A stretch of 64,000 nucleotides of DNA, from the NCBI RefSeq assembly GCF_902652985.1, contig NC_047019.1, positions 43,400,001 to 43,464,000 on the forward strand, given 5' to 3'. A program made the position numbers and the translations under genes. This document shows, one piece after another, positions 14,391 to 44,500 of the stretch (position 1 is the stretch's first letter; the number at the start of each line of letters is the position of its first letter). Origin of the DNA: Pecten maximus. Taxonomy: Eukaryota. Below the pieces are notes generated by a model. The model was not told where the DNA came from. It ran no database searches and worked only from the letters and a program-made list of their open reading frames with translations.

Positions 14391-14547
14391 GGTTAAAGGT
14401 ATTAACCAACTGCGGGTCGTCGATGCCTCTGTTTTACCGACACCTCTATCCGGCGCAACGTACGCACCCGTTGTCATGGTAGCAGAAAAAGCAGCAGATA
14501 TCATCAAAAAGACATACCAAAGGCGACATAAACGCCGGCCTAGCTGA
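14391..14547 (+). pseudogene. Duplicated terminal exon of the GMC gene (identical peptide, intact acceptor)
   Basis: Copy of 7308-7464 at offset 7083 with tttccAG acceptor; one synonymous change seen (gcc/gca). Confidence 0.88.
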
Positions 14548-15065
14548 TAAAAAAACGGAAGTTATCTGTTCTGTCGTCGTCATATCACAAATACTATGTT
14601 ATATTAACACTTCATCTCACTTTGTGGTGTGAATGGATCAGTTATCACCAAGGATATGAATGACGTCATATTGTTAAATACTTAAATGTTTGTTGACTTG
14701 TGTTATATATTAGGATGAAGCTGTTCATTAGTTACCCCTTGTATGCCGATAATGGTGTTGTTTATCGATTACCCATTGTTTGTCGATTGTGATGTTGTTT
14801 ATCGATTATCCATTGTATGTCGATGATGATGTTGTTTATCGATTAACCATTGTATGTCGATAATTATGTTATTTATCGATTAACCATTGTATGTCGATAA
14901 TTATGTTATTGATCGATTAACCATTGTATGTCGATGATGATGTTGTTTATCGATACCCTTTGTATGTCGGTAATGATGCTATTTATCAGTTTAATATTTT
15001 TGTTGATATTTTATTTCCTGTTGATCAAGTATACTGTGGTTCTCGTGCTACACAATGGCTGAACA

Positions 15066-16419
15066 ATAACTGGGATTCAACACATTTGTCATCTTGTTTT
15101 TAGTTTTGTTTTCCATAAGTATTTATACTTAAGGTATCTTGTTGTACGCTGTCCTACTGTCATAACGTCATATACACTCTTTGCTTGCCAATTGTGAATA
15201 CTTTCACGACGATGATATAGTGCGTCTCCGCTGACATGTGGACACTCTTCCTGGATAACGATATCGTTGTATGTATTACCTTGTTAGTACATGTATGTCA
15301 CCAATAGTGTAATGTTATTAATCAGGGTCGATAATGGGGCGATACATAGCTTTTAATCTCCATTATTTACCGATAATGGGTTAATACAGGTGCCCTGTTC
15401 CTCGTTTATATCGGTTTGCTACATAGCTTATTATCGATGATGGTGCTACACACGTGGTCTGCGCCTCGTTGTCGATAATGGTGTGATACAACGCTACCGA
15501 TAATGGTGTGAAGCATAATCATTATCTCCCTTTTTAATCAATGATGGTGTCATGCACGTGCTCTACCCAACGTTATCGTTAATGGTCTAATACAATACCC
15601 CGCCCCTCGTTTGTTTTTTGTTGACACATGTGTGGTACTGTATTATCTCCCTTATTTGACGGACTATCTATATATGTCTTTCATTGATTGTCGATAAGAA
15701 AGCTGTAGTACATTGAATCGTCAAGATCAATTTGTGTGAAACATAACTGGGATTCAACACATTTGTCATCTTGTTTTTACTTTTGTTTTCCATAAGTATT
15801 TATACTTAAGGTATCTTGTTGTACGCTGTCCTACTGTCATAACGTCATATACACTCTTTGCTTGCCAATTGTGAATACTTTCACGACGATGATATAGTGC
15901 GTCTCCGCTGACATGTGGACACTCTTCCTGGATAACGATATCGTTGTATGTATTACCTTGTTAGTACATGTATGTCACCAATAGTGTAATGTTATTAATC
16001 AGGGTCGATCATGGGGCGATACATAGCTTTTAATCTCCATTATTTACCGATAATGGGTTAATACAGGTGCCCTGTTCCTCGTTTATATCGGTTTGCTACA
16101 TAGCTTATTATCGATGATGGTGCTACACACGTGGTCTGCGCCTCGTTGTCGATAATGGTGTGATACAACGCTACCGATAATGGTGTGAAGCATAATCATT
16201 ATCTCCCTTTTTAATCAATGATGGTGTCATGCACGTGCTCTACCCAACGTTATCGTTAATGGTCTAATACAATACCCCGCCCCTCGTTTGTTTTTTGTTG
16301 ACACATGTGTGGTACTGTATTATCTCCCTTATTTGACGGACTATCTATATATGTCTTTCATTGATTGTCGATAAGAAAGCTGTAGTACATTGAATCGTCA
16401 AGATCAATTTGTGTGAAAC
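15066..16419. repeat. 677 bp head-to-tail duplication present only in unit B
   Basis: 15066-15742 repeated at 15743-16419; single copy in unit A (~8132-8808). Confidence 0.92.
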
Positions 16420-19075
16420 AGTTGTTTTTTTATCTGTTGATAGATGGTACTGTACTGCATATCTTATGGTTCTGTTTGTAGAAAACTTATCCGTCTCAAT
16501 ATTGTCCCTTATTGGTTGGTACCAGCATCAAAGGAAAATTCTAACTACGATGAAGTTGACAGAGTTTTCCTGATTTAACTGAGACTGTTTCTGGTAGGAT
16601 GTATTCCAGTTTTTGCGTGTATATAGCATAAGTTTCGCTCACTTGTCTACGTAAAAACATGTATATGACAATGTGATCTCAGTGCGTGACGTAGTGTGAT
16701 TTCGTTATGCTTTTAATCATTGTTAGATAAATGCTTAGTGAACTGTAAAAAAAATACGTTCGTTAAATACTTTCGTTGTGTGTAATATATAGAAACAATG
16801 CTCATATTCTTGGATTGTAAAAGCTCTGTTTCAAGTATAGAAACCACAAAACCAACAGTCGTGTCCAAACTGAAAACAGAATTTCGATATGATGATCAAA
16901 TTTCGATTGAATAATATATGAAAAATTGATTTATATACAATTATTTTGAAGAAAAATGCACACGAGTTGTAAATTATCAACATCATATTCAGTCATTTTT
17001 AACTCATTTCGCCTTGACGTTGAAAAAAAACCCAATCATATTTGGAAATCTTGCCTTCGCTATCTTCCGTTTGATGACTGTTTCCACTGGGTATATTTAC
17101 AAACAGGATGTCGTTTAAACTGATATCGGTACCCCTGTTGTAATCGCAGAGAGACGAGTTATTACAGAACTATTAAGTTATTCATATTCGTTAGAGTTAC
17201 TTCCCTTCGCCTGGCATAAAAGTATTTGTATAATCAGGGAGGATAGACCTAGGTAATTTCTTTTTCAACTTTTGTAATTATATTAAATTACTCAAATTCC
17301 GGGTAAATGAATGGTATACCGCTAAATGTGTTGTTTAATAGTTGAATTAAAAAAAAAAAAAAAAAAAAATAGAGCCGGCGGTGAATCTTGACCTTAAATG
17401 GTTCACTGTAATCATCCCGAGTCATTCGGTTTAAACATTAGCCTAGAGTAGAATAACCTGTTGACTGGCCTTTTATCAATAGTTAGTGTGCCCAGGTGTG
17501 TGGAAGAGGCTTGTATTGAATGATTTATAAGGGAGTGTCGGTATCGGCGATGATAATAACGGACGTAAAGAGTTAGTACAGTAGAAGGTCCTAAAATTAG
17601 CCTTGACCTGTGTGGACAGTTTATAGTACTATTGTGCAATGTTATTTTTAGAATAAATTGTGTTAAACTATTAAGTGTGTTAGAGTCGTTTAATTACACC
17701 AAGTCACTTGCCTGTATATGTATCAAATTACACCTCTTGCTAACGCCGCATTTTCTATTCGAAAACCTCCTTACACTTTACGGAATTTATCAACTGTATA
17801 TGACGTTGAAAAACAGCCTATATTACTTTCATAGAAATGCTACATCTGACATTCGCCAAAGCATCCTATTATTCCAAGAAACATCAAAATGTCTGTCATA
17901 AAAACATTTTGTGTCATTGATTTCCGTCCTGTGTAGAATGCAGTATCAATGCAGGAAACAGAATAATACGAGTATTTGACTATTTATTCCCTTTCAAAGT
18001 CTGTTGTTAGTAGGTAGGTTGAGAATTTGTTTATCATTTTGATATTTACTCTTATGGGTTCTAGTTTTTGTTTTCACTATATAAGAAGGATAATGCAGAT
18101 TTCACACATTCAGTCATGAAGAACGAACAAATCACTGCCAGCCAGGACATTTACTCAGTATTATCTTTATTTCCATATAATTCAAATACAATATATCAAA
18201 CAAAACTTACAAAACTGTAACAACCACATTATTCTACATAGTAGTGATCACAATACTCAGATTAACACAAGGCAACAAAATATTACAATATATAGAACGA
18301 TGAGTATTCTTAGAGATTCAGGTGATTTTGTTACATGTTTATATGACAACGCTAAGTTGTTACAATAACAATTACTGACTCTGCGGACCAATCTATTATT
18401 AATCCACTTCAGATAGACTGAGCAATGAGCGAATTAATGTTCCATCCACGTAATCACCGTTGGATTTCACTTTATGTTGACCGTCTATCCGATACCTATT
18501 ATAAGTGATATGGTTAATAAAATATGAATGACCTCTGATGAGTATACATTTATAACAACAGAGATCATTGATATGCCGTAAGATATTGCAGCGGATCTGT
18601 ATTCACGTGTTACTCCTGTCGTTTAACAGGTCATCCCCAAGTGAAAAGTATCTTGTTAATGGGGAAATGCATTAATAGTTCTGTTATATCTTCATAATAT
18701 CAATCAGAAATACTAACCTGACGAAGGAATAAACTTGTTATGTATAACGACAAATACACAATACATTTTTAGAAAAAGTAGTTGTGAAAAACGTTATATT
18801 TACGATTCACCATTAAAAATCCTCGACACATTTCTTCTTTGCCCTTTCATGCAACACTGGTAGTTACACATGAGCATTATGTATATTGTTACCATTTGTG
18901 AAACTAAACAGGTCTTTCTTTCCAATAATTGATCAATATTTTACTATAATCCTTTTCATCACTGCTTCATTCAGATAATGACGATTCGTTATCTCACTCC
19001 AAAATGTGGTCATGTTCAGTAATTATATCATAGTTCTTATACAAATTACATAAACATGTTCTTATTATCATATTA

Positions 19076-22000
19076 TCAGAACTTAGTAGTCTCCCGATTT
19101 GCCGTTGGATATTTCCGTTGGAGATCTCCGTTGGAGTGTTCCTGGTATGGGGGACATTGCATGTTTACATTACAAGCAGTTTCTCTTTTCTGATGTTTGG
19201 GGAACACATCTTCAACGCAACAGAGATTTTCTACCTGTTTGTCTGTGTTTATATTTGGCGACACCTTTCGCCCAGGTTTTCTCTTGACATCCTCGTCCAG
19301 TGACCCGTTCGCGTATTCATAGGCTGTGAGGAACGTGCTGACAAATACTGGTATGATGAGGGAAAATAACACAACGCCTGATAGAGCACAGATACAGCCA
19401 ATCAACTTTCCCAACACCGTCTTCGGTACCATATCTCCATATCCTACCGTTGTCATGGTTACGATACTCCACCACCAAGCCGCGGGAATACTGGGAAAAT
19501 CCGATTTCTTTTCAACAAAGTAGATGAAGTTTGAGAAAATGCACATTGTTACCATGACGTACATGACTAGAACGCAAATGTCTTTCATACCAGTAACAAG
19601 GGAATAACGAAGGACCTTAAATGCTTTGATATGTTCTATTGTCCTGAAGAGACGAAATACACGGAACATTTGTAAATAAAGGAGCAGGTCGTACACCACG
19701 GCCATAGTCTCCATAAAATCACTCCGTAAATCCAACAAAATTCTCCCGAAACTGCCAAGGAGAAGGATTAGGTCTAACCAGTTCAGCACGCCGCTGAGAA
19801 ACTCTTTTTTATACGGACATGTAATGAGTCTGAGGACGAATTCAACAGTAAAGAATGCTGTTATGACGTGTTCCATATAATGATAAACGATATATTCAAT
19901 GTGTTTTACGTTGTTACGTTTTAAAGATGATGTGAATGAAGATAATTTTTCTTTTGAAGTCAAAATCGTTTCCTTTAAAGCAGTAAAAATCCTCGCATTG
20001 ATAGAGTCATCACGTATTATTGTAAAGTTTTGTGATAATAGCGAACTGCTGTTTGTTTTACTATGATTTGCCCCTGGATTAATGTTACCACTAGACATTT
20101 CATTCGATGCTGGAATTGGCATTATCTGAACAGATCCCGAATGTAGAAGTGTTTGGTTTTTCTGATCCATGGGGTCGTCACTACCATAATCAGTATAATC
20201 AGCAGGCTTATTATCACCATAGTCCATGTAATCAGCAGGAGGGTCAACCATCTTAGCCACGTAAATTGGCAATGATTGCGTCACGAACGGACGACAACAT
20301 TTTGGTATGTGTAAGTAAACGTCTGTATTTCCTACTTTGTACTCGGTTCTTTTTGCAGTCGGCGATAGCCCCGGGCTTCCACGTGAAAGTAAACTACAAA
20401 TAGCGCAATCCACCTTGATAATCATAGGAGAAAACATCAACGGTTTTGGTGTCGTCGTTACGCAATTCATTGTTTTACTTGAAGGATCTGTATCCGTTGT
20501 TGGATTGACTCTCAGATCAGAGACTGGTGTCTGAGTCATGTCCATTGCCAATGCAGACATGTCCTTCTGGACGGTGTCCTGTTCATCGTTCATGCTAGTC
20601 AGAGCAAGATTGGCAATCATCAGCAGTACAAAGGTTGTCGACACATAGAAATACACCTGGAAATATATTTGTCAGACATCAATCCCTGGAGTTTATTTAT
20701 AAATATTACTTTGGTTTTCATATGCATAACATCTGATATAACTTTCATGACACCACACACTTGTCCGATTCCATTTGTATATGTATGTTTAAATCAAACC
20801 ACTTTTTGCAATTGAAATGTTGCAAGTTGCAATTGCCAATCTCGAATTTTTATGTTTGTGTTATTGTCGATACGGAATGACAAACGCGTCTCAAAAAGAT
20901 ATAAGTGATTTCCTCCGTGAAACACTTCATCGTAAACATGAGACTTCGAGTAAGTTTTGATTTCACGTAGATTTGGATTTCGATAATGCAAAATACTTTA
21001 ACGTAGTCAACAGTGTAGCGTATAGCCGGTTATTTTTGCCGATCAAAATTTTTGCGATTTTATTTAAAAAGATTTAAATTTTAAATCTAATTGAATAAAA
21101 AGATCTGGTTATAGGAAGATACTAATACATTATATTACAACAGGAAAGAACAATTATAATTGCCGAAATAACCTTTGATAATTAAAGGCGGCTAAGTCGG
21201 CTAAGGACTGCGTGCTATAACGATAGTCTTACACCGCTGTTTATTTCGCGGATACTAATTACCGAATGTCTGATTATTTCACAAATCAGATTTTCGCAAC
21301 TACATCAAAGCCCCGAGAAATAACGAATATATAATCCCTGCAAAAAACCCCCGGCTATATGGTAAATTGAAATCATGAGTTATACATCGTAAATAACGGG
21401 CCAACCTCAAATCACGACATATCAGCGATTGGACATGCAAATTAGACCGAAGGTGTGGGAAGCAGAGCACCAGATTAACATACATTGTACATATATACTG
21501 CAATACACATACCCGAAACCTCTGCTATGTTCTCAACACTTAAGTTTACAAATATCTGCACCAAATATATTTTGAATTACTGATAGAAATATCATCAAAT
21601 TTTCATATCGAATTTAAAAATGAATACAAATACTAAGTTTATGTGTATCATACTTCTTGATAATTAAATACACTTCCGTCTTCTATCATGTATTAATTAA
21701 TATGTATATGGTAGTAACAAAATTACTTTACAAAGTAACAACAGAGATAACATACCTTTGAACACGTTGACTTTCGATCACAGTTGACAATACCCCATAT
21801 TCGTTCCTTTGCGTTCACGTTTCGTCCAGCACTACTGTTTTCTGGTTTCTTGTGCATATTTTCGAACCCTTCGAGCATTTTCTGATCGTTCACGAAAGCA
21901 CAGAGCTTGTGATAGCAGCATTTTTCCAGCAGGCTATGATTTAGTCCCCAGAACTGCAGCTCTGTTAAAAACTCGCCCTTGCAGACACTCTGAGGAATAT

Positions 22001-22202
22001 GCAGCTGTCCGGTATAGCAGTATTCTACCAGAGCCATGGTAGAGTCTTTGGGCCGCCTAATAACGTATTTCGTGTATGCATCTGTCTGGGATGTTGTATC
22101 AAGGAACATTTCGATCTTTGACCCGAAAGTTTTGAGAACAGATTCCATGCGAACTACAAACTGATGAGCACCGATCTGGAGAATGCACTCTTTATAATCC
22201 AT
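19076..22202 (-). CDS. Kv-like channel copy 2 (divergent Shaw/Kv3-type, T1 + 6TM, ~675 aa)
   Basis: Exon 1 22202-21756 (149 aa T1 domain with H-x5-C-x20-CC: HIPQSVC..ELQFWG..CCY), phase-0 intron, exon 2 20656-19076 (S1 VYFYVSTTFVLL, S2 EHVITAFFTVEFVLR, S4 RVFRLFR, pore WWWSIVTMTTVGYGDMVP). An AG acceptor just before the ATG hints at an upstream exon. Confidence 0.92.
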
Positions 22203-27958: not shown

Positions 27959-30595
27959 TCAAATACAAATAGTCTCTTGGTTTTCCTTTACAGATTTCTG
28001 TTGGAGATTTCCGTTGGAGATTCCGAGTTCGATTGTGTTTCTAGTGTGTTCTTTATGCCCGATGCAGTTAACTTCAATATCGCACAAACCACATATTTCT
28101 CTTTCCTGGCATTCGGGAGACTCATGTTCAACATTACATAGACTTATTGAAATCCTTTTCTTAGAGTCGTCATTCCACTGATCGTCATCAAGCGACCCAT
28201 TCGCGTATTCATAGGCGTTCAGGAACGTGGTTACAAATACTGGTATGATGAGGGAAAATAACACAACTCCTGACAGAGCACAGATACAGCCAATCAACTT
28301 TCCCAACACCGTCTTCGGTACCATATCTCCATATCCTACCGTTGTCATGGTTACGATACTCCACCACCATGCCGCGGGAATGCTGGGAAAATCCGATTTA
28401 TTTTCAACAAAGTAGATGAAGTTGGAGAATAGGCACATTGTTACCATGACGTACATGCCTAGAACGCAAATGTCTTTCATACCAGTAACAAGGGAATAAC
28501 GAAGGACCTTAAATGCTTTGATATGTTCTATTGTCCTGAAGAGACGAAATACACGGAACATTTGTAAATAAAGGAGCAGGTCGTACACCACGGTCATAGT
28601 CTCCATCAAATCACTCCGTAAATCCAACAAAATTCTCCCGAAACTGCCAAGGAGAAGGATTAGGTCTAACCAGTTCAGCACGCCGCTGAGAAACTCCTTT
28701 TTGATCGGACATGTGATGAGTCTGAGGACAAACTCAACACTAAAGAATGCCATTAGGACGTACTCCATGTAATAACATATAACATTTTCTAAATATGTTA
28801 TGCTGTTTAGCTTTAGTGATGAGGCGAATGAGTACAACTTTTCCTTGGAATTTAAGACTGTATTCAAAACGAAGTCACTCAGTTTCACCTTGACACTTAG
28901 ATGATCTGCTGTGATATTTATTTTAACAGTTTTGATTTTTTCAAAACTGATATTTGAAGGACTAAGCCTGTGATCAGCAGTAGTATTTGGGATAGCACTA
29001 GCCATGTCTTGGAAGGAAGAGTGTGGCGTGACGTTAACAAACCCTGAAAATGCCTTCATTTCATTTAATCGGCTTGTTTGATTGATAGCACTATCATAAT
29101 TATGATAGGTAAAATCAGGTATTGGTATTGTAGATTTGTCTACATCATAAACGTCCTCAGAGTCCTTGTAGTCAGTAGGGGGTTCGACCATCTCATTCGC
29201 TTGTATTGCGCTTGGCTGTAATATATAGAACAAACAACATTCTAGGATTTTCAGGTGAATGTCTGTATTTTCTACTCTCAAATTGGTTCTTCTATTTGGT
29301 ATTTGCCCCGGGCTCGTGCCGTTTAGGTGACAGCAGGGATCACAATTCACGTAAATAGAAACTGGAGGGTATATCAGTTCGGTTGGTTCAACATTACCGA
29401 CACCAGGCGGCGTAGTGGGATCTTCGGTAGCGGTAGGTTGACTGATATTCGATAACGGATTAAGGGTTGTCGACACATTCAAGTTAACTGCTGATGCAGA
29501 CATATTCTGATGTGCGGTCTCTTGCACGTCTGTCATGTCGGGATACTGTCCTGTATCTTGTACGTCATTCATGCTTGTAAGGGCGAGGATAGCAATCGTC
29601 ATCAGTACAAAGGTTGTTGAAACACAGAAATACACCTGGAAATACATTTGTCATATCAACAAGTCCATACAACAGTATATACCACTATACCAGCGTCATA
29701 TTGTCGGATCAGTAGTGACAGAGAAATAAATGTTAGAATCAATTCCAAAAGAAGAAAAATAAAAAAATAAATTGTAACATTCTTCATGATATACTTAACG
29801 TATGTCTAGAAAATATTGTATGTCACAATAGGATTACTTTCAGATAAAATCTATAGATTTTAATTTTAGTAAAATTTGAGTTAACGTTTAGATAACACCA
29901 ATATTCGAACTTGTGTAAGGTAAGGTCTAATATAAACATACTTGCTCTTTGATCAAGCATATTATTGCAAATAAAAACGTTTACTAGTGATGACAATGAT
30001 TGTAGGTTAACATTAATCAACATGTTGAAATGAAGTTTTACAAACAATATTCATAAACACTTGTTCTAGAAATCAAGTATTTATATAAGTATACCTCTAT
30101 CGTTTCTAATTAGCATCCTAGCTCGGAATTCATCACCACATGACATACTTTTGAACACGTTGAATTTCGATCACAGTTGACAATACCCCATATTTTTTCT
30201 TTTGCGTTCACGTTTCGCCCAGCACTGCTATTTTCTGGTTTCTTGTGCATATTTTCGAATCCTTTGAGCATTTTCTGATCGTTCACGAAAGCACAGAGCT
30301 TGTGATAGCAGCATGTTTCCAGCAGGCTGTGATTCACTCCCCAGAACTTCAGCTCTGTTAGAAACACGCCCTTGCAGATACTCTTAGGAATGTGAAGCTG
30401 TCCGGTATAGCAGTATTCTATCAGAGCCATGGTAGAGTCTTTGGGCCTCCTAATGACGTATTTCGTGTACGTATCTGTCCGGGATGTTGTGTCTATAAAC
30501 ATTTCAATTTTGGAACCAAACGTTTTGAGAACAGATTCGATGGGGATCACAAACTGATCAGCACCGATCTGGAGAATGCACTCTTTACACACCAT
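27959..30595 (-). CDS. Kv-like channel copy 3 (~707 aa)
   Basis: Exon 1 30595-30149 (149 aa T1, HIPKSIC..CCY), exon 2 29635-27959 (558 aa); same intron position and phase; intact TVGYGD. Confidence 0.92.
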
Positions 30596-30989
30596 ACTGT
30601 CGTCCTACAGACGCTCAAATTAGATAAACACGGAATATGTTATTGTCTTCACCCTTTTTGATTTCCGCTGTATATAATGAGCCACTTCTCAGACGTGTAT
30701 ACACATATTGTCCTAGTGATTGATTTCAGGGGCTCTTTACTAGTTAATGATCTGATGAAGACTTCTGTAATGCTCAAAGTGTAGTCATAAATATTTAAAA
30801 TGGTTAAATCCAATACATTGCACTTGCTATAATGCATATTGATGTAGTGTTATTATAGGCATTTAGGCCGCGCAACAACAGACATGAAGAATGTCATACA
30901 TTGCAAACCTCGCTATCGCTCGCACAGATTTGCAAACGAAACCTTTGTTCTAACTCAATATCGATCAAATGAAAGGGAAAACGAACAAC

Positions 30990-32692
30990 ACATGGATTTG
31001 AATGGGGACCGCTTTAAAGTACATGGATTTGAATTGACACCTATGTAAATGACACGGAAGACCTCTGTAAAGGACATGGATTTGAATGGATGACTCTGTA
31101 AAGGAGATGGATCTGAATTGACACCTCTGTAAAGGACATGGAAGACCTCTGTAAAGGACATGGATCTGAATACAGGCCTCTGTAAATGCCACGAATTTGA
31201 ATGGAAACCTCTGTAAAGGACATGGATTTGAATGGAGAACTATGTAAAGGACATGGAATTTGAATGGAAACCTCTGTAAATGCCATGGATTTGAATGGAG
31301 TACTCTGTAAAGGACATGGATTTGAATGTAAACTTCTGTAAAGGACATGGAAGACCTACGTAAAGGACATGGATTTGAATGGAGAACTCTGTAAATGCCA
31401 TAAATTTGAATGGAAACCTCTGTGAATGCCATGGATTTGAATGGAGAACTCTGTAAAGGACATGGATTTGAATGGAGAACTCTGTAAATGCCATGAATTT
31501 GAATGGAAACCTCTGTAAATGCCATGGATTTGAATGGAAACATCTGTAAATGCAATGGATTTGAATGTAAACCTCTGTAAAGGACATGGAAGACCTCCGT
31601 AAAGGACATGGATTTGAATGGAGAACTCTGTAAATGCCATGGATTTGAATGGAAACATCTGTAAATGCCATGGATTTGAATGGAGAACTCTGTAAAGGAC
31701 ATGGATTGGAATATAGACGTATGTAAAGGACATGGATTCGAATGGAGAACTCTGTAAATGCCACGAATTTAAATGGAAACCTCTGTTAACGCCATGGATT
31801 TGAATTGACACCTCTGTAAATGCCATGAATTTGAATGGAGAACTCTGTAAAGGACATGAATTTGAATGTAAACCTCTGTAAATGCCATGAATTTGAATGT
31901 AAACCTCTGTAAATGCCATGGATTTGAATGGAGATCTCTGTAAAGGACATGTATTTGAATAGAGACCTTTGTAAAGGACATGGATTGGAATGTAAACCTC
32001 TGTAAATGCCATGGATTTGAATGGAGAACTCTGTAAAGGACATGAATTTGAATGTAAACCTCTGTAAATGCCATGAATTTGAATGGAAACCTCTATAAAA
32101 GACATGGATTTGAATGGAGAACTATGTAAAGGAGATGGATTTGAATGGTGACCTCTGTAAAGGACATGGATTTAAATGGAGGACTCTGTAAAGGACATGG
32201 ATTTAAATGGAGAACTCTGTAAAGGAAATGGATTTAAATGGAGGACTCTGTAAAGGACATGGATTTGAATATAAACCTCTGTAAATGCCATGGATTTGAA
32301 TGGAGAACTCTGTAAAGGATATCGATTTGAATGGTGACCTCTGAAAAGGACATTGATTTGAATGGAGTCTTCTGTAATGCTCAAAGTGTAGTCATACATT
32401 GTAAATATTTAAAATGGTTAAATCCAATACATTCTGTAAAGGAGATGGATTTGAATGGAGACCTCTGTAAAGGACATGGATTTGAATGGAGACCTCTGTA
32501 AAAGACATGGATTTGAATGGAGACCTCTGTAAAGGACATGGATTTGAATGGAAACATCTGTAAATGCCATGGATTTGAATGGAGAACTCTGTAAAGGAGA
32601 TGGAATTGAATGGAGACCTACGTAAAGGAGGTGGTATTGATTGGAGACCTCTGTAAAGGAGATGGAATTGAATGGAGACCTCTGTAAAGGAC
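30990..32692. repeat. ~31 bp satellite (ctctgtaaaggacatggatttgaatggagaa / ctctgtaaatgccatggatttgaatggaaac variants)
   Basis: More than 50 units; produces the overlapping repetitive ORFs at 30955-32861. Confidence 0.95.
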
Positions 32693-33075
32693 AGGGAGAA
32701 TGAGACCAGGTGTTCCGGAAGGGTAAATGACTTCTGAGACATCGACAAAACCCGCCTTGTAGTCTGGGCCCTAATCTCTCAACAACGATATGTATGGTGG
32801 TGACAGCGGAACCACAAAGCATATCATCAAACACCCTTCTTCCTGACGTCATATCGCACAAGGGAATATAACAACATGTAGACTATAAAACTTCCCGTAA
32901 TAAAAAAGACCTTACACATGTCGAAACCTTGTTTGAGTTTTCCTGTCCATTATCGACATCTAAACAGGAAATCGTGACACTACTGATGTGAGCTAATATT
33001 ACTCTCCTGAAATGCAAAGTTACCAATTGGTAACAGGATTATTCTGCACCTTACTTGTAAGTTAGACAAAAAATA

Positions 33076-35388
33076 CGGAAGCCTGTAAGGGTCACAGCGA
33101 ATAAATATATTATGTCTTTATACCGACTTAGCTATGTCGTATTATTATACCTCAGACTTGTATCACAGCTTCTGATTAGTGAAAACCATGTCACGTGATT
33201 AAAAACATTCGTTATGTCAACCACAACTTTCCAAATAATTCATTATTTACTTGCTGTCGCTTTCGAAACATCATGTCACCCTCTGAATATCATAATGTCA
33301 CCCTCTCGTGAGCCCTCCGAAATCGTCATGTCACCCTCTCGTGGGCCCCAACTCGGAACTCTCTTCCGTAACGTCTTTAAAAGTAGTCGAATCAGAGGAG
33401 TTCCGAGTATTCTGCTTGACAACAACAATGGCTGTCGGCGGACGCTATCGTCTGCCAACAGAGGAGGAATTGGCGAAATTATTGCAAGAAAAGGATTCTA
33501 AAAACACCAAAAGGGTCATCAATGGGGTCGTGGATTCCTTTACACATTTCCTATCTGCAACAGGTAGGCCTAGACCAAAGGATTGTGAAAACTTCGACGC
33601 CCATACATTGAAAGTTCGACTGGGAGAATGTTATGCCGGGTCCAGAAAGACGATGGGGTACCTCTTAAATTTTTTTCTTAAAAACTGTTGATAGTAATAA
33701 ATAAACTTATTGATATCAAAATTAATTCACTTATGTTTTTTTCGGTATAATAAAACAATTACTGCCCTTGTTCCGGGTTGACATGAATATTTGACCACCC
33801 GAGAGGTGTCATGTCACCCTCTGGCTACGCCCTCGGGTGACATGACACCTCTCGGGTGGTCAAATATTCATGTCAACCCGGAACGAGGGCAATAATTGTA
33901 TAATAACGACTTAGTATCTCGTAATAACGACTTAGATATGTCGTAATAACGACTTAATGTCTCGTATTAACGACTTAGCTATGTCGTAATAACGACTTAG
34001 TTTGGCGTAATAACGATTTAATATCTCGTAATAACGACTTAATATCTCGTAATAACGACTTAGTTATGTCGTAATAACGACTTAGTATCTCGTAATAACG
34101 ACTTAGTGTCTCGTAATAAAGACTTAGCTGTGTCTTAACTTAGAGCAAGTTATCTGTTGGGACATGTGACTTCATTGGATTGATCAGTTTCAGTTTTTGA
34201 CTGCTTATTATCAGAAAAGATTGCACATACTTTTATAAAATCTCATTTTAATTTAGTTGTACATTCCAATGTAGTAGAATCTAGTCCTTGTGCATTTTAC
34301 TGTTTGGAACTGACCAGAATCACAATATGGCCACCAAGTGGCCATCTCAGATTTTGAGAGTACACAAAAACTGGTAATGTTCAACTGGACTCTTCAAGTT
34401 TGGTACATTATATGCATATACTAAAAGTTCATCTTGGAATAGTGGAGCGCAGTGTAAAATATGACTTAGTAAGTCATTAGTATCTAAATATTATATACGT
34501 TGTTTGACATCAGATCAACACATTTGATTTTAATGTAATGACTGTTTTTTCATTGTATTTTATCTGTCAGATCGCATCGGTAACAACCCTTTGTAACGGA
34601 TTTCGGATCTTTATCTTGAGAGGGTTCCTTTTATAACAAGACAAAGTTAGAGTTGTACCGTTTGCAACGTACACAAGACATGCAGAGATGATTTCGTGAT
34701 GAAATCATGCTAAACCGGATACGTTTACGGTACAATTTCCCATTCGTGTAAGGAAGTATATGACCCGGGATAATGACTTTAGGGGATTATGTCAAGCGGA
34801 TATAAAATTCATCTAAATTGCACTGACACTAGCTATTCATATTTGATATTGTAACGTGCATGAATTTCGGTTAAGTATGTTACTTATTCAACACAGTCGC
34901 CCGAGTAAGCTACGTTTTTGTGTTTAAACTCGTCTTATGTTTAATTACCATAGCATTCGTGGCTATCTTCTTTACTTCAGTACTCTACTCTACAAGAACT
35001 GTGTGAATATATACTTCACAATTATTGTATCCTTATACATGTGTGTACGCTTATATATAAACTACGTAACCGATAATTATGTTTGAATTCGTGCTACAAA
35101 AAGTGAGTGACGTATTATATAAAGACATCATAGATAAAAATCGGTTAATTAATCCAAATTACGAATACATAATGGATTAACCAAAGTGAACAAAGTAAAA
35201 AAAACACACTTCGAAATAATTAAGCGAACGAAACCCCGTCGTTGTTGATCTGTTGTATATTTGTGCACGCAATAATACCACACAGATGACTTGCTCCAAG
35301 TTAAGACATAGCTAAGTCGTTATTACGAGATACTAAGTCGTTATTACGACATAAAATATTTTTTCGTTGTGACCCTAACTGGCTTCCG
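33076..35388. mobile_element. TA-flanked non-autonomous DNA transposon with long TIRs containing ~21 bp subterminal tandem repeats
   Basis: Left TA+cggaagcctgtaagggtcacagcgaataaata, right ttttcgttgtgaccctaactggcttccg+TA. tcgtaataacgacttag repeats at 33900-34130 are mirrored at 35310-35350; cttaacttagagcaagttatctgt (~34135-34157) is mirrored at ~35283-35306. Confidence 0.8.
33145..33903 (+). mobile_element. Crypton-like (tyrosine-recombinase) non-autonomous element nested in the left arm of the TA element
   Basis: ttatac...gtataa termini. ORF from ATG 33428 (RYRLPTEEELAKLLQEKDSKNTKR..F..FL..L..CYAGSRKTMG) resembles the N-terminus of Crypton/DUF3504 proteins and is truncated. 145 bp subterminal hairpin at 33755-33899. 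Confidence 0.7.
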
Positions 35389-36171
35389 TAAAAAAATGTA
35401 TTCAAATAGGCAAAAATAGTATATCAAAATAGTATTTTACTGTACAATCGACCAAAACACCTTATGTTTGTCATATATTATAATATTACTTTGATTTCTC
35501 TTGAAAATACAGGAAGGCGATACACTGGGCTCACAAGGTAAAACATATAACAATATCGATATGTAATGATTTCACTACAGTGTATTGAAATGAGTTTTAT
35601 TATTACCATTATTATTACAAAATGTATATATTTTCCCTTTAATACAGAGCTTAGTGACAACAATATAGAAATAATCAAATATTCCTATATACTTCAAGAT
35701 ATTTTGGGAATTTGCCGAGGAAACTTTATACTTTTGAAGAAAGTCATAATATGGGTATACATAGAACTGAATTATAGAAATACATTTTCTAGAGTAAGGT
35801 TCAGTGGCAATTTGAATGTATATAAAACTGCCTACCGTTCTACTTCTATAAATACAGATTTTCAGTATAAGCTGGTTCACAGATAGAGTCCACTGTAATC
35901 CATGTTGTCGTTTATATGTAATTAATCTAGGCATCCGTATAATAATTATGATATATAGTAGAGTGGACATATTTCTTTGAACAATTCATTTTAAGAAGTA
36001 TCAGTATACGGGTAGTTCAGACCCTTATGTTGAATATTCGTACTAAGTAAAACTATGACTCGGCTCTCAGAGGAAATTTTACATTTAAAAAAAATTAAAG
36101 ACAATCCCTTTCATTTGCACTTTCATACGGTTGATGATATTCCTATTCCTTGATTGTTTGAATTATGACAT

Positions 36172-36448
36172 TCACAATAGGAGACTTGGACCAAATCTAT
36201 AGACCAATAAGATAACGTAAATGCACCCATTTATTGTGAAATTTTGTAAAGTCATTTTATTAATAATGTATTCTTCTGTTCTAAAGTAGTATTCAATTTC
36301 CTTCTTAAATCCGGAGATAGAAGGCAGTGTGTGTTTGAGTTTCTGTTTGTATATATGTATCTTTGGTGATATCATTAGCATGTTATTTTGTTTTAATTTA
36401 TGGTCAAGAAAACCTAAAGTTAAAGGGAATAGAAATACCTGTATGGTT
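36172..36448 (-). mobile_element. 3' fragment of an L1/Tx1-like ORF2
   Basis: KIHIYKQKLKHTLPSISGFKKEIEYYFRTEEYII resembles the C-terminus of L1/Tx1 ORF2. Confidence 0.55.
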
Positions 36449-37335
36449 ACAAGATACAATATACAAGAATTTTCATTTAACGTCGCATATTAAAAACAGT
36501 AAACATTAGCGCTGTAGCGCTATTCTTGCGACAAACATAGTACTAAGAAATGCAATATCATATAGTTAAGATATACATGTCGCGTACAGGAATCACAGAA
36601 GAAACGATACCGAATTACAAACAGCTAAATTAAGAATATAGTTATACACAAATCAAAGAAGGCATATACATGAAAAGGAACAAACGAGTTACAAGCAAAC
36701 ATACAAGATACAACAAACAAAGCAGCATATTAAATAGTAAATTATCACAGAATAAGTATAGTGTTTAAAATATTCTAATATAAATTTCATAAGTTTCATA
36801 ATATAGAAATAATATTGAACACTTGCATATCACACAAGTATTACTAACGGATCAGGTTACAGCACTATGATAGTCTAATGTACATACAATGCTAATGTAG
36901 CAAAGGGTAAACATTGATATAATATACACTAATATAGTGTGAATAAAAACAAGAGATAATGAAGTTGGTTGAAATAGAATTACTATGGTTATAATCATAC
37001 TGTTTAAAGTTTGGTTAGGAAAATATACTGCTGCTAAGTTAATAATGTAAAAACAAAGAAGCGAAAATAAAACACATGTACAGGTTGGCCATAGTATCAG
37101 GACACCAAAAGCAAACACACAGGGCTAGGTATGTCAGAAGGACTATGCATGCGCGCATATGGCACACATAAACAGTTTACCATCCCAGGTGCGCAACAGT
37201 CTGCGGAAACTCTGGTAGTTTTCAGCCTTTCTCAAGTCGTTTGGCAGACTGTTTCAGACCCGGGCGGCCTCAAAACGGAATGAATTCTTACCATATCCAG
37301 TGGTGTTGACTTTAGCATCTTGAGGGTATTTTCAT
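36449..37335 (-). mobile_element. 5'-truncated CR1/L2-group LINE: ORF2 C-terminus, 3' UTR and (TCTTGTA)-type tail
   Basis: Minus strand KVNTTGYGKNSFRFEAARV*NSLPNDLRKAENYQSFRRLLRTWDGKLFMCAIC (~37310-37155); tail ttcttgtatattgtatcttgta at ~36449-36470. Linking tail to ORF is inferred. Confidence 0.65.
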
Positions 37336-38264
37336 TTCATTTCATTTCATTTTCATTTTCATTTGGGTTACTACCCACAGAGCTAACGCTTCTCAGAAGT
37401 TTAATAATGAGGGACATTCCGAAGGTAAGCTAATAATTGAATCAACATTACTATTTCAGAAAGAACAGAATGGAGAATTTCTAATCTTTATTGTATAAAG
37501 AAATTTGTGGCTATTATCCTGTGTACAATTCTATACTGAAACCATCGGCGGTTGGAGTTGTATTTTGTGTTTATCACAATAGTATTTATTCTCGTCCACC
37601 AAAATTGATCGTATTGTACGTGAAAATCCATTTGTATTGAATACTTGTATTTATGTTTTATTGTTTAATAAAGAGCATATATATATAGTCTGCTTATTCG
37701 AAAGACAACAAAATACAAAAGCATACACACGAACATTAACATATATTTCAGCTATAAAAAGTGTTGGATATATCACTGTCATAATGACATGGCATTTCTG
37801 GTGTAAAAAGTGCCACCAGACCTAACTACATTTGTCTTCTCGCTGTTTTTTCATGTGTAACTAATTATTTGTATAGACCACAGTATTCGTATATAATTAT
37901 GTGTGATATGTGACCTATATGTAAAGATATATTTCCCCCCACACTGGTTAGCAATGTATGTTCTTCGACACTTCTGGAAAACTATTCGGTAAAGTAAGTA
38001 AATTTTATTCGTATAACTATTGCCATAGATGCGTTTTTATACCGTTCACACCATTTTACTATAGACTAGTGTAAATTAAACTAGTTAAGGAAACAATGAG
38101 TATGGATGATCATAAAATAGTATCTACCCATGCTTATATATTGACAAAAATATAAACCACATTTTAAAATGGGGATGAGACTTCATACCTTATTTCTGTA
38201 ATGTGGTCATGATTGTCCTCGGTATGATCAGTTAATTATCTACATGTACTACATAGTTAACGAA

Positions 38265-38565
38265 TGGTGTGGATGATAAGAAAACCTCCGATACCATTGG
38301 GATGAATGTTGAGATACAAATGTAGCCTCAGATACTGATGGAATGAATAATGAGATAGCCTCAGATACTAATGGAATGAATTATGAGATAACTTCAAATA
38401 CAAATGGGATGGGTAATAGGATAACTCTCCGATACGAATGGGATGGTTAATGAAATAGCCTCGGATACGAATGGAATGGTTAATAAGATAACCTCGGATA
38501 CAAATGGGGTGTATAATAAGATAACATCTGATACCGATTGGATGGATAATAGGAAACTTCCGAAG
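38265..38565. repeat. Degenerate ~33 bp tandem repeat just downstream of the Kv copy 4 stop
   Basis: About 8 units of gataacctcggatacnaatgggatggntaataa. Confidence 0.7.
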
Positions 38566-38625
38566 CAACTTTGATAATGAGTCAGTATAAAGGTAACTTC
38601 TTAGTGACCTTCTCTTAAGATAGTG

Positions 38626-41555
38626 TCAAAATTGAGTAGTTTCCATAGTTTCTGTTTTCCGTAGTAGTATTGGATGTTCGTTTGGGTTATGCAACTGTTC
38701 CTTACACATTATGTCAACATTAAGGACCCTTGTGATCTGTTTGTTCTCATTTGAGTTCAGCGTCCCAATTCGCCTTGAGTCTTTACCGTCCTCACCGTCC
38801 CGACAGCCTTCCTCACCATCCTGACAGCCTTTTGCGTATTCGTAGGCTGTGAGGAACGTGCTGACAAATACTGGTATGATGAGGGAAAATAACACAACGC
38901 CTGATAGAGCACAGATACAGCCAATCAACTTTCCAAACACAGTCTTCGGCACCACATCCCCATAGCCTACCGTTGTCATGGTTACGATACTCCACCACCA
39001 TGCCGCGGGAATGCTGGGAAAATCCGATTTATTTTCAACAAAGTAGATGAAGTTGGAGAATATGCACATTGTTACCATGACGTACATGACTAGAACGCAA
39101 ATGTCTTTCATACCAGTAACAAGGGAATAACGAAGGACCTTAAATGCTTTGATATGTTCTATTGTCCTGAAGAGACGAAATACACGGAACATTTGTAAAT
39201 AAAGGAGCAGGTCGTACACCACGGTCATAGTCTCCATCAAATCACTCCGTAAATCCAACAAAATTCTCCCGAAACTGTCAAGGAGCAGGATCAGATCTAA
39301 CAAGTTCAATACGCCACTGAGAAATTCCTTTTTGTTCGGACATGTAATCAGTCTGAGGACGAATTCAACAGTAAAGAATGCTGTTATGACGTGTTCCATA
39401 TAGTGACATAAAACGTTTTCAAAATCTGCATTACTTGCTAGTTCCCGCGCTGAGGTGAACGAAGAAAGTTTTTTCTTAGAATTTGAAAATGAGTTCGTAA
39501 GGAATGTAGTCGTCCAATCCTTGACAGATGATTTAAATATATTTTCATTATTCGTTATGTTTTTTAATGCCATCTTGCTGATGTTTGCACCAGGGCTTGT
39601 TGCATCACTGTATATCTCGCTGGAAGCTGAGTGTGGCGTAACGTTTGTAGCAAAATACCGCGTGCCATTTAATTTCGTCGTTTGGTTCATGGAACTATCG
39701 TTCCCGTAATCATTAAAATTAGGCTTTGGAGGTTTGTCCAAATCATACAAGTCCTGAGTGTAATCAGGGATTGGAGTTATATCCAGATCATATACGTCCT
39801 TGTACTCAGTAGTGTGGTCCAGTATTTCGCTGAATGGTATTACAGTTGATTGTACAATATTAGTCTTACAACATTTTGGCAGGTGTAAGTGTATGTATGT
39901 ATTTTCTACTTCTAGCTTTTTACTTTTATTACTTGGTGACATCCCACGGCTCCCACCGGTTAGGAGGCTGCAGGCAACACAATTTACTCTGATAATAGTA
40001 GGAGTATATCTCAGTGGCATCGGTGTCACGGTACCGCAATTCGCGGACATATTTGAAAAACCTGTAATATTCAATTGATTTGTAGAAGGTAACAGATCCG
40101 AAGTACCAGACGAATTCCCGTCGGGATGCTGCTCGTTATCTTTTACATCGCTCATGCTGGTAAGGGCAAGGACAGTAATCATCAGCAGTACAAAGGTTGT
40201 CGACACATAGAAATACACCTGGAAATACATTTGTCAGGCATTAAGTCTATAAAACCGTGTATACTGCTGTCGAGATTATTAAGTTAATCTATATGTCATT
40301 TTTAATCTTTGAACATTATGTCAGGTGTTCACGAAACAAAAAGAATGTCGTTTGTGAAAATAGATATCAACAAAAAAGAAATCGAACTGAACTACTTTGG
40401 TCATTGTAATAATTTCAAATAAACTGACGTATTGTATAGCAATTTTGCAGGTACAAATGTCATAGGATGCAAAGCCCATACTCCCGGTCGATAGAGTGTT
40501 TGTGACGAAAATACACAGCAGGACTATCATTTTACAACTTATTCCGAAAGAACTTTCAAGCTTGGAGCCATACACCGAACATACATTTATTCTTCCATAC
40601 TCGTACATCAAGCACCACACAGTGAACATACATTGGTTCACCCATACTCGTACACAAGGCCCCACACAGGGAACATACATTGGTTCACCCATACTCGTAC
40701 ATATACTAGTACCTGCCATTACGAAATTGATGGCTCGAGCATTCAAATTTTGGATTATCAGAAAGAAAAGGCCTAAAGAATGATAATGTGATTATTGCCC
40801 GTAAGGGACGTTGAACTGGCCACGAACGTGATGTGAAAACCAATGTTCGTTTTCGCAATTTAATTTTACACCTCAACTCAAGTTTGAAGTAGGTTATACC
40901 CTAACGGAAAACTATGTTTTAAAGGAACTACAAATGTTTAAAGAATATTGATGTAAAAGGCCTTCCTCGAAATAATTGGAACGATCAAAATCTTTTCTCG
41001 TGTAATCTTGATGATTGCAAACCACACAATCTAACAATGGATAATAACCCAGAGTCAAAGCCGTTTTATAATTTGTCCTGCTGTTAGAAAACATACCTTT
41101 GAACACGTTGACTTTCGATCACAGTTGACGATTCCCCATATTCGTTCTTTTGCATTGCCATTCCCAGAATGCCCAGCGCCACAGTTCTCTGATTCCATAT
41201 ACATGTTTTCGAACCCTTTGAGCATTTTCTGATCCTTCAGGAAAGCACAGAGCTTGTGATAGCAGCATGCTTCTAACAGTCTGCTTTTCAATCCCCAGAA
41301 CCGCAGCTCCGTTAAAAACTCGCCCTTGCAGACACTCTTAGGAATGTGAAGCTGCCCGGTATAGCAGTATTCTATCAGAGCCATGGTAGAGTCTTTGGGC
41401 CTCATAATGACGTATTTCGTGTATGTATCTGTCCGGGATGTTGTGTCAAGGAACATTTCAATCTTTGACCCGAAAGTTTTGAGAACAGATTCCACGGGGA
41501 CTACAAACTGATCAGCACCGACTTGGAGAACAGGTTCAATTTTGTCACATACCAT
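38626..41555 (-). CDS. Kv-like channel copy 4 (~683 aa)
   Basis: Exon 1 41555-41097 (153 aa T1, HIPKSVC..CCY), exon 2 40218-38626 (530 aa); intact TVGYGD; same intron phase. Confidence 0.92.
40575..40705. repeat. ~47 bp tandem repeat (about 3 units) in the Kv copy 4 intron
   Basis: gaacatacattggttcacccatactcgtaca recurs three times. Confidence 0.7.
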
Positions 41556-44500
41556 ATTGTCAGCTGACAAACACACTATCGTTTTTGATAATTGTTTAAT
41601 TCAAAAAGATTGAAATCGAGAGCCTCTTCTTTATGATACTCCCAAACACAGTACATACACTAGAGATATCTCTCAGTCGTGTTTATAATAGTCGTCCAAG
41701 TATCTATATTTGATCATCAGGGTATGGTGTAGACTGTTGAATGCCATGGGGCATAATGAAATATGCCTAAGCTATAGTCATTCATATTTAAAAATAATTA
41801 TGGGCAAACAAAGTCAATATATGAATATACAGATCGATGTAGCTCTACAGTACAGACCTGACAGAGATTCATGGGATTATACTGTCCAACAACTTCATAT
41901 GGTTCTCTGTTAACATATATTTTACATGCATGCTTCTAAGACATATATACTTATGGTTAACATAATAGAAACATTGTAGAATTGCATTATCTATGCATTG
42001 ACGTCATGTTTAACCTTCAGTACCAGATTGCTTGGTGCCTATCAACACTGCATAGCTGAATCATGTACATTATTAACCATGGCTACGTACCCTATCTTAA
42101 CGGAGCATCTCATTTACGTTCTCATCACGTTGTCAGTATAATATGACCACGTGACCAGCGAAGTAGTACTGTAAAGTCGGTATCGAATATTCGTGAAATA
42201 AAATCAATTTTAATTTTAGCCAATTTCTGAATTTTTGTTTTAGTAACAGTCCATCTATCATGTTGTAGGAGAGATAACCCCTATTTAACATATAGAGATA
42301 ATCAAATATATACGTATACATATAATAATATAATATTTGTATAAAATTTGGTCAGCATTCTTACCCTTCATAAACAAACTATACAATTCCCTATGATATT
42401 GTAGAATATCAGATTGTGATGAGTCACTGGTGTTTCACTATATAAAATACATCTACAATACATGTCATAGGGAACTCTAGTGTAGGGTTTCGTTGTCAGG
42501 ATGTGCATGAAGTAAGAAACATAACTCAATGTACAGAATAAACAGTTTCATCAAATTTCATAAAACTAGCTGCACTGATAACAAATGAGACCCATTCTAC
42601 AGCATATCTTATATAATCACGCAATGAAAACAATGTCTCGTTATCACAATATCGTCACAAAAGAGCAAAGGTAAATCGCTGACCCAGTATCAGTGGATGT
42701 AGGGTAAGATACGTGTACAGCTGTACTCGCTATCTGTACAGGGAGATAAAGGACCAACCAGTCTCCCAAACAGTGAGTCTGAGGTAGAGCATCAGGTAGA
42801 CTTTTCCGTGGGTGACACAGAGGAAGTCGGTTAGAACATGGCCATGTTGAACTCGGTCCTGAGAACCGTTTGTAGACAGACTGTCGGACGCTGTCAGCAC
42901 GGTATGTTACATGGTTACACACTACACGTACTCCGAGTACCAGATCTGTGTGTTTGTGTATAGTAGTTATATAACCAAGAGGTGACACGGTTTTAACTTT
43001 CAATAGGAAGTTTATTGTTTAACATCTGCTAGCTTATTAACACAGTAATCGTTCTGAGTCCTTATAAAGATACGTTCTCTCTGTAGTTATGGATAACATG
43101 GCGTGCTTGTCACAAACAGGTACCCGAGTATTGATAAGTCATGTGATACACGGTAAATATTGTAAACAACCTTGTATGCGTCACAAACAAACTAAACCAC
43201 GCTCTATAAATTTTTACTCTTACAGGAAATCAGTGTTTCCTTACATATGTGCATTTTACATACATGTACTATGATTTAAAGAGTGTATTACTTCCATGTT
43301 CACTGTTTTGTGATATCTTGTAGGGTTGCAGCTGACTGGGCCGGGGACAACTAGTGCTCCTGTCAGGTGGTTAACATTGGTATGTGTTAATTTGTTAAAT
43401 AGATAGAAACTCGTCACATTTAGCATTCATCCATCTTTAAATTTGTATGATTTTGTTTAAGTGACACTAAAATCCTCAACATTTTCATCGAAGATGTACA
43501 TTTACAACCCAGATATCTGATTTACTATTAATAAAAAGGAAATAATAAAATTTATAATTCATACCGCCTTATAAACCAAATTTAATATTTTAACTCTAAG
43601 ATAAATGGAGTTATCTGTGTGATTCTGTATGATTCGCAGGGAACACTTAAGATTTTAAACGTGTTGATCACGTGTCAAAATGACGAATCGAGAGAGAACC
43701 ATTATGACTTGAATAGGAATGATCACATATGTCTGCTTCGGGTTAGTGTTTATAGAAAAGTTATTAGCTCTTGCTCTTTTTTCACTCAGATCCAAGATGT
43801 TATGAATATCAGCCAAACAAAACTAGCCAAAGTCTATAGTGATCTCGACTCTTTACAATTTATAGAATACACAGCATGTTTCATACTTCATTGCTTACTT
43901 TCGTTACTATTTCTTTTCGCACTCGCTTATATGCTCATACCTTCAAAAACCGTACACAAATACTCATTCAATCAAACCAACCGTCCGACGCCTATACAGA
44001 AGCAAAAAAGAGACACATTGACATACGAAAATCAAACACCATGGCAGACTCTGGCCGACTTTAACCCTGTCACTGATATAAAGACAAGCACATAATTCAC
44101 TGATAGCCTAATAAAAACACACCCATCAGTCAGATACATATATAAAAACGTTTATACCTAAGATCCACTCAATTACAAACAAGAATTATTATGGAATTTC
44201 AATTCTGTCAAACATACACAAAGACTTGTATGTATCTTAATTTAGAGTCAGCAACATAAGCACACAGACATACAGATACTTATAGAAAGAAAGTTACACT
44301 TAAGATCCACACAATTACAGACAAGATATACAGTGCAAACTCTGTCAAACATACACATAGAACAGGCATACTCATAGACATATAGACATATCCTGTCTCA
44401 CACTTAAACCCATATATACGTGTACGATACTATGTTTTGTAATTGTTGATGTCAATATGTTCTGTCTTTTTTTCTTTTTTGTTATCTTAGTGCTTAAACA

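Follow-up and report, generated by a model that had tools for sequence, protein, structure and literature searches.

Tandem Kv channel genes of the scallop Pecten maximus with a conserved four-cysteine module in the S1-S2 loop, a candidate disulphide-stapled extracellular knob

The window, i.e. the whole stretch of 64,000 nucleotides of Pecten maximus DNA that was analysed (contig NC_047019.1, positions 43,400,001 to 43,464,000), contains four tandem voltage-gated potassium (Kv) channel genes on the minus strand, of which copy 1 is 5'-truncated (Table 1). In each gene exon 2 spans from S1 to the C-terminus and exon 1 encodes the T1/BTB_2 domain, a domain match that was made on copy 2 (PF02214, E=2.7e-8), where exon 1 is linked to exon 2 by a GT-AG splice. 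The H-x5-C-x20-CC motif in this T1 domain is presumably the T1 zinc site. Copy 2 is intact, its spliced frame giving a 675 aa product, and its intron is absent from the contigs of three of four transcript runs (X1, X2 and X3, all from one study); a single 3094-base contig spans both exons and carries exon 2 without any difference. Coding cover of copies 3 and 4 was almost nil in the four runs and no RNA record was found for the listed carriers of the module described below, neither of which is read as silence. Copy 1 differs from copy 2 at 14 of 1596 bases and belongs to a ~7 kb tandem duplicate (window 7265-21929, 96-98% identity), which leaves its T1 exon 5'-truncated and is either a genuine recent duplication or an assembly artefact. 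Since copy 1 is a truncated duplicate, the window holds three distinct complete genes.

Several other features were observed in the window. An exon-like piece that we take to resemble the C-terminus of a GMC oxidoreductase is duplicated on the plus strand (14371-14520 and 7288-7437) and abuts the copy 1 breakpoint, and a plus-strand frame at 976-1356 presumably resembles the N-terminus of a mariner-type transposase. At 33140-33563, divergent contigs from all four runs pile up to high depth, and this segment is likely to be a repeat element. Scattered low-depth contigs from three runs lie downstream of copy 4 (35770-38706), possibly in a long 3' untranslated region, and long tandem-repeat arrays (30990-32700, 46250-48670 and 52220-52750) give spurious open frames.

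Table 1. Features of the tandem Kv genes in window coordinates.
Feature	Position	Strand	Description or basis
Copy 1	exon 2 ORF 11495-13090	-	first ~91 codons of exon 1 missing
Copy 1 module	12713..12868 (about)	-	same as copy 2 module
Copy 2 coding exon 2	19076..20656	-	S1, loop, S2-S6, C-tail
S2-S6 core, copies 2, 3 and 4	19289..19881, 28181-28773, 38828-39406	-	93-95% DNA identity; likely gene-conversion tract
Copy 2 S6 gate IIPVFV	19340-19357	-	within exon 2
Copy 2 filter TVGYG	19436-19450	-	within exon 2
Copy 2 S4	19625-19672	-	within exon 2
Pre-S2 conserved loop element (K-x-K-L-x-S...E)	19877..19966	-	alignment conservation
Copy 2 S1-S2 loop	19886..20590	-	~234 aa, 4 N-glycosylation sequons, 5 Cys, Ser+Thr+Pro 29%
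Copy 2 module	20294..20449	-	CxxC, 20-aa spacer, VGNT hairpin, CC; four beta-strands predicted
Copy 2 module Cys codons	20405-07, 20396-98, 20297-99, 20294-96	-	sequence
Copy 2 fifth loop Cys	20462-20464	-	sequence
Copy 2 intron	20657..21755	-	GT-AG, 1099 bases, skipped in transcript contigs
Copy 2 coding exon 1	21756..22202	-	T1/BTB_2 domain with H-x5-C-x20-CC motif
Copy 3	exon 2 ORF 27959-29650; exon 1 within 30110-30604	-	open frames
Copy 3 module	29234..29386 (about)	-	five Cys: CxxCC...CC
Copy 4	exon 2 ORF 38626-40233; exon 1 within 41055-41600	-	open frames
Copy 4 module	39868..40023 (about)	-	sequence

The cysteine module lies between S1 and the Ion_trans match of the host channel (PF00520, E=4.6e-34), i.e. 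in the S1-S2 loop. The initial annotation had reported its motif in three loops with a spacer of about 20 residues, and the motif is indeed seen as written on the minus strand in copies 2, 3 and 4, with spacers of 20, 19 and 20 aa, respectively; copy 1 also has it, with a module identical to that of copy 2. The module was found in four further genes, three from Argopecten irradians and one from Mizuhopecten yessoensis, and is present in all seven distinct genes despite loop lengths of 212-298 aa. It is nearly gap-free in the alignment, compared with many gaps in the flanks, and of the 22 loop columns that at least six of the seven sequences share, 11 lie within its 50 residues (Fisher p=0.0014); conservation of the module is beyond chance. 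At least six of the seven keep strand positions I85, V87, V113, T116 and L120, and the inner residues of the CxxC vary freely (AI, DP, VA, VS, NP, EK and GT). In copy 2, Ser+Thr+Pro make up 38% of the stalk preceding the module, and the copy 2 and copy 4 loops contain local tandem repeats. The assertion that the flanks barely align was overstated: identity among the window paralogues is 33-40% over the entire loop and 43-50% over the module, and a stretch before S2 equals the module in mean pair identity across the seven proteins (0.37 for the module, 0.37 for the pre-S2 element and 0.18-0.19 for the other flanks). The pre-S2 element, drawn as a helix in a low-confidence full-length model of the Argopecten protein P0006, may couple the loop to the voltage sensor.

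Since the cysteines had originally been picked from the window copies, their retention was tested out of sample. Cys is retained at 15 of 16 positions in the four non-Pecten homologues, compared with 31 of 80 for flank positions showing the same invariance among the three window paralogues (p=5e-5), and non-Cys module positions were kept in 26 of 48 cases, an excess over the same flank set that is not significant (p=0.10); these p-values are indicative only, the sequences being related. The cysteines are thus conserved in three scallop genera, the pattern being present in the Argopecten and Mizuhopecten homologues, related species in which it might have been absent. That all four are invariant holds within the P. 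maximus genome and fails across scallops, where the fourth Cys occurs in six of eight modules. The two exceptions are in P0006, which has two modules in tandem, duplicated as a unit, both ending in C-A rather than C-C and with a new Cys three residues after the CxxC, a shift that is common to both and counts as one evolutionary event. Each P0006 module keeps four thiols, the fourth Cys being moved and not lost, which suggests that the CxxC and CC segments adjoin in space; the shift alone does not separate disulphides from metal ligands.

Beyond scallops no carrier was found. A search for lophotrochozoan homologues had been proposed, and it recovered the module in other scallops and nothing further by profile or word searches: a profile of the seven modules run against 1.84 billion representatives gave three matches, all of them training sequences, the reach of a seven-sequence profile being limited, and a word-based search of proteins of 115-2000 aa gave six matches among 3861 candidates, again all training sequences. 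The strict motif pattern matched no other listed protein, and the same pattern also missed the carrier P0002. From these searches the module looks scallop-restricted and not lophotrochozoan-wide. In the P. maximus genome a protein search gave four strong matches, all within the window, and a DNA search found copies 1 and 2 only, with no repeat origin seen. Two further own-genome protein matches, with stop codons inside and E about 3, were set aside as chance. A literature search, with subscription papers thinly covered and supplements excluded, returned no paper on the module or on these scallop channels; the module is apparently undescribed so far, on a known channel type.

On its domain matches and its TTVGYG filter, the host gene is a Shaker-family Kv subunit, with an S4 that carries just three regularly spaced Arg residues (Q-x-x-R-x-x-R-x-x-R). 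The module proteins are labelled 'Shaw-like' or Kv subfamily A/B-like by their sources. A quick tree built on 98 pore-region rows, which left out Lottia sequences, unites the seven module genes in a single clade (SH-aLRT 100) nested in a divergent clade (99) whose named members are all bivalves. The tree places this divergent clade outside the conserved groups (Shaker, Shab, Shal and Shaw), in a part where deep nodes fall below 95 and long branches meet. A lophotrochozoan expansion of Shaw (Kv3), with 13 Shaw genes in Lottia, is described in the accessible text of Jegla et al. 2012 (PMC3519636), and the expansion also appears in the available part of bioRxiv 10.1101/2025.09.21.677649; it is likely that the module genes belong to it. 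Loops in the bivalve clade range from 52 to 486 aa by a heuristic length, obtained for 23 of 32 clade rows, and hold 0-28 Cys, many being Cys-free. The P. maximus genome itself has a large Kv repertoire as judged from sequence matches, with 43 own-genome hits to the Kv pore region at E<=1e-10 and several tandem clusters on C2, C4, C7, C8 and C17. One Kv paralogue elsewhere in the genome (L011, G000:C16:21879538-21883098) has a Gln-rich S1-S2 loop of ~460 aa with 11 sequons and no Cys. A protein of the same Kv clade from the ark clam Tegillarca granosa (P0017) and a relative, P0009, have an S1-S2 loop of ~480 aa with 28 Cys, which has no Pfam match above the cut-off and no similarity to the scallop module (probability 0.3%); a search with this loop found only itself and missed the evident relative P0009, indicating the limited reach of that search.

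The divergence of the three window paralogues is uneven along the gene. Within the window, dS is 0.11-0.18 in the core from the end of S2 to S6, compared with 0.5-1.5 or saturation in the loop and tail, and 90 bases around S4 are identical in copies 2, 3 and 4. In a tree of the loops, copies 4 and 3 pair with different Argopecten genes (86 and 85% bootstrap), and core identity is 94-95% within the genome versus 76-87% across species. The loop pairing and the core identities together suggest old paralogues with a gene-converted core: the three genes appear to be older than the split between Pecten and Argopecten, and the pore core has likely been gene-converted while the ectodomain diverged freely. 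Conversion of the core only, between old paralogues, would mean that conservation of the module does not come from recent copying. Simple counting on ~50 codons per segment, with some segments saturated, puts dN/dS among the three paralogues at 0.40-0.80 for the module, compared with 0.46-0.60 for those flanks in which dS is unsaturated. As far as such comparisons go, it is mainly the cysteines and a handful of strand residues that are under constraint.

A module dN/dS similar to that of the flanks is what would be expected if the loop were a near-neutral spacer, a glycosylated filler lengthened by local duplications and lacking a partner, in which the cysteines persist since a lone thiol harms folding or export. 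The local repeats in copies 2 and 4, the non-significant excess of conservation outside the cysteines and the sister genes of the bivalve clade, with their 52-486 aa and often Cys-free loops, are consistent with this. Such a filler would not readily account for a module that remains whole in all seven distinct genes, one of which has duplicated it as a unit, that is nearly gap-free between gap-rich flanks, and that has conserved hydrophobic strand positions, and we regard the spacer explanation as rather unlikely.

The chemistry of the cysteines depends on which side of the membrane the loop faces. Across the seven loops there are 59 N-x-S/T sequons in 1718 residues, whereas 1424 cytoplasmic residues contain 12 (p=4e-7); counted per Asn, an excess is again seen (59 of 151 in the loops versus 12 of 82, p=9e-5). 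Together with the S1-S2 position in standard Kv topology, this enrichment suggests that the loop is likely extracellular and glycosylated. An extra membrane segment within the loop was considered and rejected, the first strand region being hydrophobic enough in copy 2 only (1.64 over 19 residues, compared with 1.59 for S1 and 0.88-1.32 in the other six). Extracellular cysteines normally pair, and because the loop is likely extracellular, disulphides are likelier than a zinc site or a redox switch. Of the three chemistries offered by the initial annotation, disulphide bonding is therefore favoured by the S1-S2 position and the sequon enrichment, and metal binding and redox switching found no positive evidence. 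Four of the seven loops hold an odd number of Cys (five), the fifth without an evident partner.

The remaining two chemistries would have the four Cys bind a metal (Zn, Cd or Cu), or the CxxC act as a redox switch that gates the channel. The CxxC and CC could indeed supply four ligands, a count that is kept in P0006, and the weak PDB sequence matches of the module (E 0.57-1.6) are CxxC stretches of zinc finger and ribosomal proteins; these matches are not significant, however, and each covers one Cys pair. Catalytic CxxC motifs are not known to vary freely at their inner residues, in contrast to those of the module, and the likely extracellular, glycosylated setting is one in which Cys normally pair. 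Redox-sensitive extracellular disulphides are known from TRPC4/5 in the accessible text of PMC7054860, a precedent on the other side. The sequence searches linked the module to no family of zinc fingers or redox proteins (PDB best E=0.57; no Pfam match), and we consider a metal site or redox switch very improbable.

Structure prediction was carried out on the 65-aa module, for which a usable model was obtained. AlphaFold2 with the seven-row alignment gave a mean pLDDT of 71 and a pTM of 0.47 (pLDDT 64-66 in the other four models), with strands at 12-17, 37-41, 44-48 and 54-59 (pLDDT 72-80) and a spacer of low confidence (pLDDT 55). A four beta-strand fold is thus predicted with moderate confidence, where a failure to predict any confident fold would have spoken against a domain, and to that extent the prediction bears out the earlier proposal of a small folded domain carried by a stalk rich in Ser, Thr and Pro. 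The full-length P0006 model is unusable (mean pLDDT 35), and the same four strands are drawn in its module 2. Foldseek with the module gave no match at E<=0.001 in the PDB or viral library, and a structure atlas gave no feature match (best TM 0.45), which is not proof of a new fold. The best VIA-align hit, to beta-sandwich-type chains (Z 2.4, rmsd 4.1, 50 aligned), was not trusted. At the sequence level no Pfam family matched the loops of any of the three window paralogues at E<=1, the seven modules reached a best E of 0.15 with unrelated families, and the PDB search was not significant; the module would seem to belong to no family found in these searches.

Combined with the gene structure and the comparative analysis, it is proposed that the module forms a small beta-strand knob outside the cell, on a likely glycosylated and flexible stalk, in which two disulphides would tie the CxxC segment to the CC segment. 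Such a disulphide-stapled knob is probable in our judgement. The knob may serve as a paralogue-specific contact surface for an extracellular partner (a ligand, matrix or an accessory protein), and contact with the partner could act via the voltage-sensor helices that the loop joins, tuning where the K+ channel, a weakly voltage-dependent one, is localised or how it gates. Granted the disulphide knob, we rate the contact role as an even call. For the reading as a whole, a conserved four-Cys module that folds outside the cell into a disulphide-stapled beta knob with a role as an extracellular contact surface, the balance tips slightly in favour. Points against a strong role are the p of 0.10 for the non-Cys excess, the module dN/dS of 0.40-0.80, the pTM of 0.47 and the odd Cys in four of seven loops. 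If it exists, a folded, Cys-stapled ectodomain on a Kv voltage sensor would be a natural test of extracellular gating of a Kv channel, and paralogues with differing ectodomains and near-identical pores would allow simple swap experiments; if the module is merely a stabilised spacer, it would be a minor scallop peculiarity.

Two larger arrangements were also weighed. The polycystin-mucolipin (TOP) domain sits between S1 and S2 and contains disulphides. By analogy, the four modules of a scallop channel tetramer, perhaps with the pre-S2 element, might form a cap or ring above the pore, as in TRPP/TRPML, in line with the earlier suggestion of oligomerisation above the channel. The loop is domain-sized, the conserved hydrophobic faces of a four-strand unit might call for a partner, the fifth, unpaired Cys in four of seven loops could join subunits, and TRPP/TRPML offer a precedent (accessible text of PMC7054860). 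A prediction of the four-copy complex (score 0.05, mark 0.32), in which the alignment was unused and the partner fold uncertain, is given no weight either way. The cap is distinctly unlikely in our estimation: the three loops have no Pfam match at E<=1, the bulk of the loop is of low complexity and weakly conserved, and in one paralogue each subunit carries a pair of modules, an arrangement that a ring of fixed fourfold symmetry would need to absorb. A bolder reading, to which we give little credence, is that the bivalve Kv clade comprises receptor-like K+ channels, in which lineage-specific S1-S2 ectodomains would gate the pore on extracellular ligands or force. The pore itself, conserved, weakly voltage-dependent and made uniform among the scallop paralogues by gene conversion, would then carry such ectodomains as the scallop four-Cys beta module and the ark-clam 28-Cys domain, a Kv counterpart of the polycystin-mucolipin domain.

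Compared with known systems, the module genes resemble Shaw (Kv3) and other Shaker-family Kv channels in their T1/BTB_2 domain, S1-S6, TVGYG filter and the H-x5-C-x20-CC motif in T1. Kv channels typically have short S1-S2 loops, and the 212-298 aa of the module genes differ from the 8-46 aa obtained for 26 P-x-P-gated rows. The available text of PMC12184066 describes a Zn site between subunits in the T1 domain of Kv3.1, and the part of PMC10567553 accessible to us has the S1-S2 loop of Kv2.1 left unmodelled. The S6 gate is IIPVFV in all seven module genes and departs from PVPVIV in the loss of the first Pro and an aromatic at position 5, a likeness to regulatory ('silent') Kv subunits, which are marked by atypical S6 gates and mostly keep P1 in the accessible portion of Pisupati et al. 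2018 (PMC6279357). Unlike in those subunits, loss of the first Pro is common to the whole wider molluscan group, deeply conserved members included (TVPIIV), and a silent phenotype of the module genes is for that reason merely possible. The TOP domain is described, in the available text of PMC7054860, as a large extracellular domain of TRPP/TRPML that is absent from related voltage-gated channels. The scallop sequences differ from it in that neither the loops nor the modules gave a TOP match in the Pfam searches above and just ~50 loop residues look folded; what they would have in common with it is a large, probably extracellular insertion on a six-helix tetrameric channel.
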